Source: an uncultured Alphaproteobacteria bacterium (GTDB taxonomy: Bacteria; Pseudomonadota; Alphaproteobacteria; UBA7879; VGCX01). From it: a DNA stretch of 50,679 bases. Positions 35,162 to 39,266 of the stretch are shown here, one piece after another. The notes under the pieces were generated by a model. It was not told where the DNA came from. It did no database searches and was given only the letters and a program-made list of their open reading frames with translations. Position numbers and translations under genes: made by a program. Each line of letters opens with the position of its first letter. Position 1 is the stretch's first letter. The DNA lies in NCBI GenBank assembly GCA_913061155.1, contig CAJXSI010000005.1:1-50679 (forward strand), in the 5' to 3' direction.

Positions 35162-35827
35162 TTAAACAACTTCGTAAATGTAAACAGACGTACTTTTGGA
35201 CCACGTCATGGGAAGTTCTAATTCTTTTATTAATTTTAATTTATTGTTTTCACTGAATTCTTTTAAAGTTATGATCTTGGCACCTTTTCTAAGGTGGCTG
35301 ATTTTTTCTTGCAAAACTGTCATCATTTCTGGGGTGTAACAGGTACTACATAAATAAACAATTGTTGCATCAGAAAAATCTATTTTTAAAATATCCCCAT
35401 GAATATATTGCAAAGACCGCCCTGGGGTTAACACCCCTTTTTTTCCAGCCCGTAATTTTGCTTTCATCGCTTGGTTATGACGGTAGTCTGATAATTCTAC
35501 GCCGACTGATTTTTTAATGAACGTCGTCAAATAAAATTGTAAGGGAACTTTGCCGTTTCCACTGCCTAAATCATAAAAAACATCTTTTTGTTTTATATCT
35601 AAATAGGAAATAAGATGTGAAACAGAACTGGGCAGAATCTCCCCATAAGTTGGGGCGCCCCCTGCTTCAGTTACGGATTTTCGATCCTTGCTAGAGGCTT
35701 TAAAGGCATTTAGGTTTTTATAAATTTCAGAAATTAAAGATTCTTGTTTTGTATGGGGTAAAGGCAATGGCCTTGCCGATGTTGTTGTCATCAATATTAA
35801 TAAACTGAAGACAACAACAAAGCGCAT
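35162..35827 (-). CDS. DOT1-like SAM-dependent methyltransferase with signal peptide
   Basis: YGEI..DVFYDLGSGNGKV..GVEL..GDIL..ATIVY..GAKII..TW; hydrophobic N-terminus ending TSA. Confidence 0.75.
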   Translation of the reverse strand: MRFVVVFSLLILMTTTSARPLPLPHTKQESLISEIYKNLNAFKASSKDRKSVTEAGGAPTYGEILPSSVSHLISYLDIKQKDVFYDLGSGNGKVPLQFYLTTFIKKSVGVELSDYRHNQAMKAKLRAGKKGVLTPGRSLQYIHGDILKIDFSDATIVYLCSTCYTPEMMTVLQEKISHLRKGAKIITLKEFSENNKLKLIKELELPMTWSKSTSVYIYEVV

Positions 35828-38165: not shown

Positions 38166-38254
38166 TCAGGATTCAAACGACGAAGGTAAACTGGCTTAGA
38201 TTAACTTGATTTTCAAAGCTTGCCTGACGAAGTGTTATTCTTGCAATTTTTCCC

Positions 38255-38283
38255 TTTAAATTTTGATTAAAAAGGCCTATATT
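38255..38283 (+). promoter_or_regulatory. Sigma70-type promoter candidate for ssrA
   Basis: TTTAAA-N17-TATATT directly before the acceptor piece. Confidence 0.4.
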
Positions 38284-38284
38284 T

Positions 38285-38773
38285 ACGGTGATGGGTAACC
38301 ATCTATGATGATAAACGGCTAACGTAATAAGCGTTACGGACCCGGGGGCGGTACCCGGCGCCTCCACCATTTATGAAAGTGTTTATCTGATTGATGCGAA
38401 ATATTTTGTGTCATACTATAGCTTAGTCATTAAAGCATAATTGATTAGGTTGTTGATGCCACAAGGAATAAGTGATGAAATTTACGGCTTCAGTAAATGA
38501 AGCACGCAATGACACCGTGGCATCGATAAGATAAACAATTAGAGGGGGCGAACCAGGATCGACGTGCGTGGTAAAGGTTATCTTTTCGTCCGGCATTGTA
38601 CCACCGTTATCGGGCTGCATGATAAGTGCAAACACTAAAAATACTCGTCGTGGTGCTAACCAAAATAGGTTAGTTGCCAACAGCCGCCGTAATGGTAGCC
38701 GTCGTGTAGCAAACGCTGCTTAGTAAATCAAGCAGTAGCGGTCTGAGGGGCACCGGGCAACAGAAGCCCCTCA
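38285..38773 (+). ncRNA. ssrA: Permuted two-piece tmRNA: acceptor piece about 38285-38369, intervening segment 38370-38543, coding piece from 38544
   Basis: T-arm CCGGGGGCGGTACCCGG; CGCCTCC-A-CCA pairs with downstream GGGGGCG including the G3-U70 Ala determinant; AGGATCGAC; ATAAGT-GCA-AAC resume context; tag ends AA-TAG-TAA; 3' hairpin TGAGGGGC/GCCCCTCA; sspB is adjacent. Confidence 0.95.
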
Positions 38774-38786
38774 CTTAATTTTTAAT

Positions 38787-39266
38787 ATGGACGAGGGCAT
38801 TTTGGATTATCTGAATTACGACAAATTAATGGACAAAGCAATGCTTGGCGTTGCCCGGACTGTCATAGAACAACTTAGTCAGCATGGTTTAAAATCAAAC
38901 CATCATTTCTTTATTACTTTTGTGACGAATCACCCAGGTGTTCAAGTTCCCGATTATTTAAAGGAACAGTATCCCGAAGAAATGACAATTGTTATTCAAC
39001 ATCAATATGAAAATTTATTGGTATCACGGGATGCTTTCAGCATTGATTTGTTTTTTGAAGACCAGGAAGAAACTATCAAAGTACCTTTTTCATCCTTACT
39101 TAGTATCGAAGACCCTTCTGTTAACTGGGGATTGGACTTTGAACCAGATACTGATTTTTCCAAAATTGACGTGCCTTCAAGTAATATTGATGATACGCCG
39201 CAGCTTAAAAAAGAAGAAAAAGGTACCGTTGTCTCTTTAGACAGTTTTAGAAAAAAAGATAAGTAG
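38787..39266 (+). CDS. sspB: ClpXP adaptor SspB (alphaproteobacterial type)
   Basis: HHFFITF.T.HPGV, YPEEMTIVIQHQY, C-terminal VVSLDSFRKK ClpX-binding tail. Confidence 0.93.
   Translation: MDEGILDYLNYDKLMDKAMLGVARTVIEQLSQHGLKSNHHFFITFVTNHPGVQVPDYLKEQYPEEMTIVIQHQYENLLVSRDAFSIDLFFEDQEETIKVPFSSLLSIEDPSVNWGLDFEPDTDFSKIDVPSSNIDDTPQLKKEEKGTVVSLDSFRKKDK

Follow-up and report, generated by a model that had tools for sequence, protein, structure and literature searches.

The tag encoded by ssrA, the adaptor SspB and the protease ClpXP form a textbook case of an adaptor and a protease that share one short degron, and most engineered degradation tags are based on them. In E. coli, as the portion of PMC9963277 consulted describes it, the adaptor sits on the upstream tag and ClpX on the terminal Ala-Ala, with the adaptor tail tethered to the ClpX N-domain; SspB binds the seven residues that open the 11-residue tag, including an Asp-Glu pair in the SspB site, and ClpX binds the last few. 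A closer relative is the two-piece transfer-messenger RNA (tmRNA) of Caulobacter crescentus with its adaptor SspB-alpha. Here we describe an ssrA gene of this two-piece kind in a 50,679-nt stretch of DNA from an uncultured alphaproteobacterium (hereafter the window: positions 1 to 50,679 of contig CAJXSI010000005.1, assembly GCA_913061155.1). Its tag is long and strongly basic, and this is an inherited trait of the whole order to which the genome belongs, not a feature special to this genome. The window is thus one ordinary member of an unusual clade.

The locus shares with Caulobacter the permuted gene order, the tRNA-like domain, the resume context and the stop in helix 5, a tag that starts with Ala-Asn and ends with Ala-Ala, and an sspB gene directly downstream whose product carries the ClpX-binding tail. 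In contrast, the tag here has 31 residues against 13 in Caulobacter (a figure taken from the preliminary description of this DNA), a net charge of +8 and not one acidic residue where the Caulobacter tag has an acidic middle, and four Ala-Asn motifs against one. The SspB core is also about 5 charges below the class average, with conserved basic residues lost at columns 20, 61 and 96. Compared with E. coli, the upstream part of the tag is basic instead of bearing Asp-Glu and is about three times longer (PMC9963277, in the portion consulted). The third-last tag residue is Leu in E. coli and Asn here. The elements of the locus, all on the + strand, are as follows.

38251..38775, +: ssrA, two-piece (circularly permuted) alphaproteobacterial tmRNA; limits from Rfam.
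38307..38369, +: acceptor piece; it holds the T-arm, forms the 3' half of the tRNA-like domain and closes with the encoded CCA (38367-38369); from the RF04321 alignment.
38370..38543, +: intervening sequence of unusual length (about 174 nt), left unaligned as an insertion with both Rfam models.
38544..38775, +: coding piece, with the 5' acceptor strand (G run from 38544), pseudoknot region, tag frame, helix 5 and terminal hairpin; from the Rfam alignment and the sequence.
38622..38627, +: resume context ATAAGT, directly 5' of the resume codon; aligned to the conserved AuAAuU of the model.
38628..38720, +: tag reading frame, 31 codons, net charge +8, four Ala-Asn motifs; from the sequence and ARAGORN.
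38676..38720, +: internal 15-codon module from the second Ala-Asn, like an ordinary short alphaproteobacterial tag minus its Asp; rival resume site with context TTAGTT.
38715..38736, +: predicted helix 5 hairpin, in which the two final Ala codons, together with the first stop, pair with downstream AAGCAG(T); from minimum-free-energy folds.
38721..38726, +: tandem stops TAG TAA in the helix 5 loop region; from the sequence and ARAGORN, the hairpin being predicted by folding.
38787..39266, +: sspB, alpha-type ClpXP adaptor of 159 aa, directly 3' of ssrA; Pfam PF04386.

The preliminary description had proposed ARAGORN and the Rfam alpha_tmRNA model as checks of tmRNA identity, and both came out positive. 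RF01849 (alpha_tmRNA) matched at 38251-38775 on the + strand over its full length (model 1-355 of 355) with 222.7 bits against a gathering score of 50 (E = 2.7e-63), and RF04321 (tmRNA_permuted) matched at 38307-38723 with 119.6 bits against a gathering score of 47. A permuted tmRNA at 38277-38814 was the single gene called by ARAGORN on the whole window, and a genome-wide scan found one tmRNA copy in the 1.26-Mb, 51-contig genome. The permuted order is apparent from the CCA at 38367-38369, which lies upstream of the G-run strand at 38544-38550; the Rfam structure line pairs the two with each other. In the RF04321 alignment from 38307, the acceptor piece aligned at high posterior over its T-arm and acceptor strand. 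Folding of 38600-38780 gave z = -3.34, and the hairpin around the stop was predicted likewise in the other order members folded. The Rfam tmRNA match measures 525 nt in the window; the sister genome (G001) has one of 582 nt, and in the remaining 16 members of the order it measures 329-379 nt. A glutamine riboswitch has been reported in the ssrA intervening sequence of a phage (PMC9004378, in the part consulted); for the 174-nt intervening sequence here, an Rfam scan at E<=1 returned tmRNA models only, and we discarded the idea of a comparable RNA element within it.

The tag frame opens with GCA at 38628-38630, immediately after ATAAGT, runs through 31 sense codons to 38720, and closes with TAG (38721-38723) and TAA (38724-38726). 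The tag contains 7 Arg, 1 Lys, 7 Asn and zero Asp or Glu, and ends with Ala-Ala. ARAGORN returned a tag and double stop identical to the frame read by eye, and the Rfam alignment placed the resume region of the model on 38621-38640 with high posterior, leaving an extra 57 nt as an insertion inside the tag frame. The preliminary description had read the same frame from the letters alone, and its account of the tag holds: an Arg/Asn-rich tag of 31 aa without acidic residues, a retained terminal AA degron, and an adaptor-facing part of flipped charge and more than doubled length, next to the gene for SspB. The usual ANDN start is absent; position 3 is Thr, the segment that bears Asp in ANDN tags is basic here, and the length is 31 against the usual ~10-15. 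The free C-terminal Ala-Ala is kept in this tag and in all 18 genomes of the order. The third-last residue is Asn, which is not hydrophobic, in the window, the sister genome and one genus of another family, and Leu, Ile or Ser in the remaining order members. This Asn, together with the unusually long intervening sequence, sets the genus apart from other members of the order.

The sequence is backed by assembled reads. A DNA contig from run X4, which may be the source of this DNA, spans 38200-38900 and differs from the window at one position only, 38512, which is not in the tag. Contigs from the RNA libraries of three studies reach from 38298 to 38735 (X14) and from 38309 to 38748 (X15, X17), cross the 174-nt intervening sequence, and have zero listed differences within 38628-38726; they end before sspB, while the DNA contig continues past. 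Agreement of the DNA and RNA contigs over the tag frame answers the concern, voiced in the preliminary description, that reads might not support the sequence. The runs that hold this stretch are marine, seawater, aquatic or plastic-surface metagenomes. Because contigs cannot prove RNA ends or levels, we take the RNA contigs as support for transcription of ssrA and as a weak hint of processing into two pieces. In run X14, a 40-nt RNA contig with a word depth of 4220 covers 38337-38369 and ends at the CCA, beside a whole-gene contig of depth 50.5; this may reflect an abundant mature acceptor piece.

To place the tag among its relatives, we used the GTDB order of this genome, which comprises 18 species genomes in 3 families and 10 genera, with genome sizes of 0.9-1.5 Mb. 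All 18 have an alpha_tmRNA match. Tags were taken from ARAGORN for 15, and the three that it missed (G006, G008, G015) were read from the conserved context. For the sister genome, ARAGORN gave an 18-residue tag from an internal Ala-Asn; an in-frame canonical context upstream gives 34 residues, colinear with the window tag. Across the order, all 18 tags are long (21-36 residues, median 26) and basic (net charge +3 to +10), and with 31 residues and +8 the window tag ties for fourth longest, four order tags being as long or longer. A single acidic residue occurs in 4 of the 18 and none in the rest. The pooled composition is Ala 24.6%, Arg 21.4%, Asn 19.8% and Asp+Glu 0.8%, while the G+C content of this genome is ~38%. 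Lys-rich and Arg-rich versions interchange between families, so that charge is kept and sequence is not. No order tag has the ANDN start (0 of 18). The other 17 species also share the tag architecture and the sspB neighbour. Two genomes gave a weak second alpha_tmRNA-like match below the cut-off (L047 in G002 C17, 19.6 bits; L048 in G014 C11, 19.1 bits).

We then compared the order with its class, taking one genome per family: 151 genomes, 149 of them with a match. Genome G057 (unpublished), the two genomes with no match, four weak or partial matches and a second copy in G128 were set aside. Tags were called by ARAGORN plus the context pattern; 141 of 160 loci gave a tag, and all 19 loci with no call lie outside the order. 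The 123 outside tags have a median length of 12, 103 start with ANDN, and 13 reach 20 residues or more. Their net charge is -3 to +2 in 117 cases and +3 or more in six (L252, L238, L041, L231, L229 and L036, the last with an uncertain resume site), all from genomes of at most 1.5 Mb. In length and charge, the window tag lies far outside the class norm. Across the class, long basic tags are a rarity; every sampled species of this order has one, as do a few other families with small genomes. Since the preliminary description had itself named commonness in related clades as grounds for giving up the singularity it implied, and 18 of 18 order genomes as well as 6 of the 123 tags from outside families are similar, that implied singularity is not upheld. 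Five of the outside loci, L041 (G036), L252 (G125), L238 (G165), L231 (G156) and L229 (G141), come from genomes of 0.5-1.5 Mb and have tags of 23-33 residues with charges of +3 to +9; a motif R-V-(T)-A-A-N-x-N occurs in the L231, L238 and L229 tags in common with the order.

The length of the tag depends on where translation resumes. Rather than at the upstream GCA, it could resume at the internal GCC (38676), as the preliminary description had itself considered, which would give a 15-residue tag and turn the upstream 48 nt into an untranslated leader. The TTAGTT before 38676 indeed resembles the ATAGTT resume context of Hyphomicrobiales-type outgroup tmRNAs, the 15-residue product would have the length and N-terminal Ala-Asn of ordinary tags, and it was the homologous internal site that ARAGORN selected in the sister genome. 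However, the resume region of the Rfam model falls on the upstream site and not on 38676, and four further results bear on the frame. First, all 18 order genomes have the upstream codon in one frame with the terminal Ala-Ala-stop, despite a length range of 21-36 codons, that is, 15 codons of variation. Second, the N-terminal extensions of 17 genomes contain 0 stops in the tag frame against 8 and 26 in frames 1 and 2; a shuffled extension would stay open with a probability of 0.30-0.86 per genome. These genomes are related, so the frame counts are not independent trials, and the genera are almost fully diverged in extension sequence. Third, congeneric pairs differ inside the extension by whole-codon lengths and by synonymous Arg, Asn and Thr changes. 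Fourth, the context TTATAA[AG]T precedes the codon in most of the 18 genomes, and in each of the 13 sequences that match this pattern it lies a short distance 3' of a conserved CCGTTATCGG element. Frame conservation and stop counts leave very little room for an internal start, and they support GCA 38628 as the true resume site, as judged from sequence comparison.

Within the order, the tag appears to be built of modules. Most order tags carry a V-A-N-x-N module 11-17 residues before their end, in which the usual Asp is replaced by Arg, Ser, Cys or Leu, and the basic extension, which itself opens with Ala-Asn at the resume site, precedes it. There are 2-4 Ala-Asn motifs in 15 of the 18 order tags (four in the window tag) and exactly one in 112 of the 123 outside tags. 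The V-A and A/G-N codons are mutually reverse-complementary, and in several genera they form a 5-6-bp GUUGC/GCAAC hairpin around the internal Ala-Asn. Because of these hairpin codons, and because the internal context resembles the outgroup resume context, the arrangement suggests that the extension arose by duplication of the resume region. A GUUGC/GCAAC-like hairpin is also possible in the outgroup resume region.

Such an origin raises the question of whether the extension is read by anything. It may have grown by duplication of the resume module and then drifted, with a composition that is a by-product of constraints on the RNA, with only the Ala-Ala of consequence, and with an acidic SspB that is unrelated. 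We regard this as the main rival explanation but consider it rather unlikely, although several points speak for it: the hairpin formed by the V-A-N-x-N codons, the outgroup-like context upstream of the internal site, the fast divergence of tags between genera, the small genomes (<=1.5 Mb) of all six outside lineages with basic tags, and the occurrence of acidic SspB cores alongside ordinary tags. Yet drift would have to account for a positive charge that persists in all 18 genomes although Lys and Arg replace each other, and for acidic residues at only 0.8%. A genome of ~38% G+C would moreover be expected to drift away from CGN Arg codons, and Arg nevertheless makes up 21% of the pooled tags. 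In the class sample, short ANDN tags persist in many further families whose genomes are small. We also considered that a strong, conserved RNA structure might have caused the composition, and rejected this: when 16 coding regions were folded as single sequences, z ranged from -3.5 to +1.0 and was -2.9 or below in only 4 of them. Because the folds show no consistent excess stability, RNA structure alone does not explain the composition.

The candidate reader of the tag is encoded next to it. The product of 38787-39266 matches PF04386 with 122.1 bits against a gathering score of 27 (E = 2.8e-35), and its best solved relatives are 2nys (E = 2.5e-30) and the Caulobacter SspB structures 2qas/2qaz (E ~1e-20). 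The gene starts 12 nt downstream of ssrA, and the two genes lie side by side in every one of the 18 order genomes and, outside the order, in at least 85 of the 123 loci. The C-terminal ClpX-binding tail, V-V-S-L-D-x-F-R-K-K, is kept in all 18 order members and in outgroups, the latter being 79 distant loci found by SspB similarity, mostly Rhodobacterales and Hyphomicrobiales by their titles; the one close relative is the sister genome. As this outgroup is biased, the family-level sample was used for the charge comparison instead. The rest of the machinery is also encoded: SmpB (TIGR00086, 180.5 bits against a cut-off of 119.1), ClpX (647 bits), ClpP (286.5 bits, just under the equivalog cut-off), ClpA (988.5 bits, just under the cut-off) and Lon (927.1 bits). 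ClpX keeps its Zn-finger N-domain and RKH loop.

For the charge comparison we used 18 SspB sequences inside the order and 85 outside, with the core defined as window residues 6-120. Order members have a mean core net charge of -11.2 (-13 to -8) and outside sequences one of -5.8 (-14 to +1); the column-summed difference is -5.5. Tag charge and SspB core charge are correlated with a Spearman coefficient of -0.57 (n=103), and of -0.29 outside the order alone (n=85, p=0.006), both uncorrected for relatedness. The SspB columns that shift in charge are as follows.

Columns 10 and 115: more negative in the order.
Column 20: more negative; Leu in 15/18 order members, Arg or Lys in 75/85 outside.
Column 61: more negative; Glu, Ala or Gln in the order, Arg, Lys or Gln outside.
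Column 87: more negative; Asp in 15/18 order members, Thr or Ser outside.
Column 92: more negative; Asp or Glu in the order, varied outside (Gly, Lys and Asn commonest).
Column 96: more negative; Thr or Ser in the order, Arg in 46 outside.
Column 117: more negative; Glu or Asp in the order, Gln outside.
Columns 17, 32, 78 and 81: more positive in the order.

To relate these columns to a possible contact with the tag, we folded two copies of SspB 1-125 (with a 42-row alignment) with the 31-residue tag, alongside three controls. The complex model scored 0.61 against 0.01 for the best control, which supports binding by prediction but does not show it; the mark used is reached by 58 of 80 solved complexes and by 2 of 110 mismatched pairs, in a calibration whose job differs from this one. 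Contact agreement between the runs is at least 51%, and the predicted local distance difference test (pLDDT) value of the partner is at least 44. Similar complexes have been solved (2qaz), so the pass may reflect likeness to them. The predicted interface comprises SspB residues 40, 42, 44, 58, 61-62, 66-69, 71-73 and 88-91 against tag residues 25-31, the position of the groove being taken from the fold model. It contains the nearly invariant columns 40, 67, 71 and 90, which fits the statement, in the portion of PMC9963277 consulted, that the groove and the dimer interface are the conserved parts of E. coli SspB. Of the eight columns shifted to negative charge, one (61) belongs to the predicted interface and two (87 and 92) lie beside it; none of the four columns shifted to positive charge lies in or beside it. 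The pose itself is doubtful in detail, because the groove holds residues that ClpX must take and because the terminal motif is not conserved in the order.

Taken together, these results lead us to favour, with somewhat more confidence than doubt, ordinary trans-translation with an inherited long basic tag whose Ala-Asn module or modules would be read by the acidified neighbouring SspB. On this account, tmRNA would enter the stalled ribosome with the help of SmpB, translation would resume at GCA 38628, and the 31-residue Arg/Asn-rich tag would be added. The free Ala-Ala end would serve as the degron for ClpXP and ClpAP, both encoded in the genome, and one or more of the internal Ala-Asn modules would be read by the SspB encoded 12 nt downstream, which would deliver its substrate through the retained ClpX-tethering tail and whose substrate-binding domain appears markedly more acidic than in relatives with Asp-bearing tags. 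The tag would be modular, a short canonical-like V-A-N-x-N...AA following a basic extension that was probably gained by duplication of the resume region. Of this account, our data show the gene, its tag frame and the conservation of that frame, its occurrence in RNA libraries, and the partner genes. We give about an even chance to the more specific proposition that SspB would bind the basic part itself and that its charge shift would be an adaptation to the basic tag.

Several observations weigh against reading of the tag by an acidified SspB. Only one of the eight negative-shifted columns lies in the predicted interface and two flank it, while columns 20 and 96, where a conserved Arg was lost, are unlisted there, and four columns shift in the opposite direction. 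The model places the last seven tag residues (25-31), which ClpX needs, in the SspB groove, and the terminal tag motif is not conserved across the order. Fourteen outgroup SspBs have a core charge of -9 or below, and ordinary ANDN tags accompany 10 of these. Outside the order, the SspB of the other basic-tag lineages has Arg or Lys at column 20 and no Asp at column 87, so that there is no universal tag-adaptor code. The choice of the internal start by ARAGORN in the sister genome counts on the same side, as do two features of the read evidence: contigs cannot prove RNA ends, strand, level or processing, and DNA run X4 may itself be the source of this assembly. Finally, the RKH loop of ClpX favours acidic tags, and it is unchanged here despite the basic tag. 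We examined co-adaptation of ClpX to the basic tag as a candidate and rejected it, the RKH loop and N-domain being canonical. The suggestion of the preliminary description that the tag could mean a different adaptor code thus stands in part. On the adaptor side, the acidic SspB core, the shifted columns near the groove and the fold model lend it indirect, computational support; on the protease side, the unchanged RKH loop speaks against it.

A stronger form of this idea is a charge-inverted pair, in which a multi-module basic tag with 2-4 Ala-Asn sites would be read by the acidified SspB, possibly with both dimer subunits on one tag; delivery to an otherwise canonical ClpXP would then depend strongly on the adaptor, with orthogonality to the ANDN/SspB pair of other Alphaproteobacteria. 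We regard this as possible but clearly on the less probable side.

Alternatively, the basic extension may add a function beyond delivery to ClpXP, such as being recognised by a different protease or adaptor, holding tagged fragments on nucleic acid or membrane, or acting on the ribosome while the tag is translated. The tag greatly exceeds the length that the SspB and ClpX sites together need, and Lon and ClpA are present in this genome. The tags of Mycoplasma and Mesoplasma offer a parallel in that they are also much above proteobacterial length and occur in small genomes, and there the long tags accompany a switch to Lon (PMC8138137, in the part consulted). In contrast, those organisms have no ClpXP and their tags are read by Lon (PMC8138137, same part), while ClpX, ClpP, ClpA, SspB and an Ala-Ala end are all present here. 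Nothing in the genome points to a new reader, and ClpX, ClpP and SspB are intact and canonical. We therefore consider an added function improbable, and ordinary delivery of the long basic tag by SspB to ClpXP remains the reading that we favour.

A literature search, with the tmRNA Website tables and supplements outside its scope, returned no description of long basic alphaproteobacterial tags. The sole tag-charge oddity in the passages searched of PMC4131195 is a terminal Lys in Carsonella. An adaptor-facing part that turned from acidic to strongly basic and grew threefold in length, next to a canonical ClpX, ClpP and adaptor tail, is a ready-made natural test. It could reveal co-evolution of tag and adaptor and show whether the spacing and valency of adaptor sites matter, and the lineage might supply an orthogonal degron-adaptor pair. 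Automated pipelines under-report such tags, because ARAGORN missed 3 of the 18 order tmRNAs (L030/G008, L044/G015 and L046/G006) and shortened one tag (L029/G001: 18 residues instead of 34). Many permuted tmRNAs at Rhodobacterales and Hyphomicrobiales loci were also missed by ARAGORN.

Elsewhere in the window, the - strand at 35162-35827 encodes a 221-aa protein whose N-terminus is hydrophobic and signal-like. The protein has a match to the DOT1 histone methyltransferase domain of eukaryote type (PF08123, E = 8.7e-20), which is unexpected for a small marine alphaproteobacterial genome.

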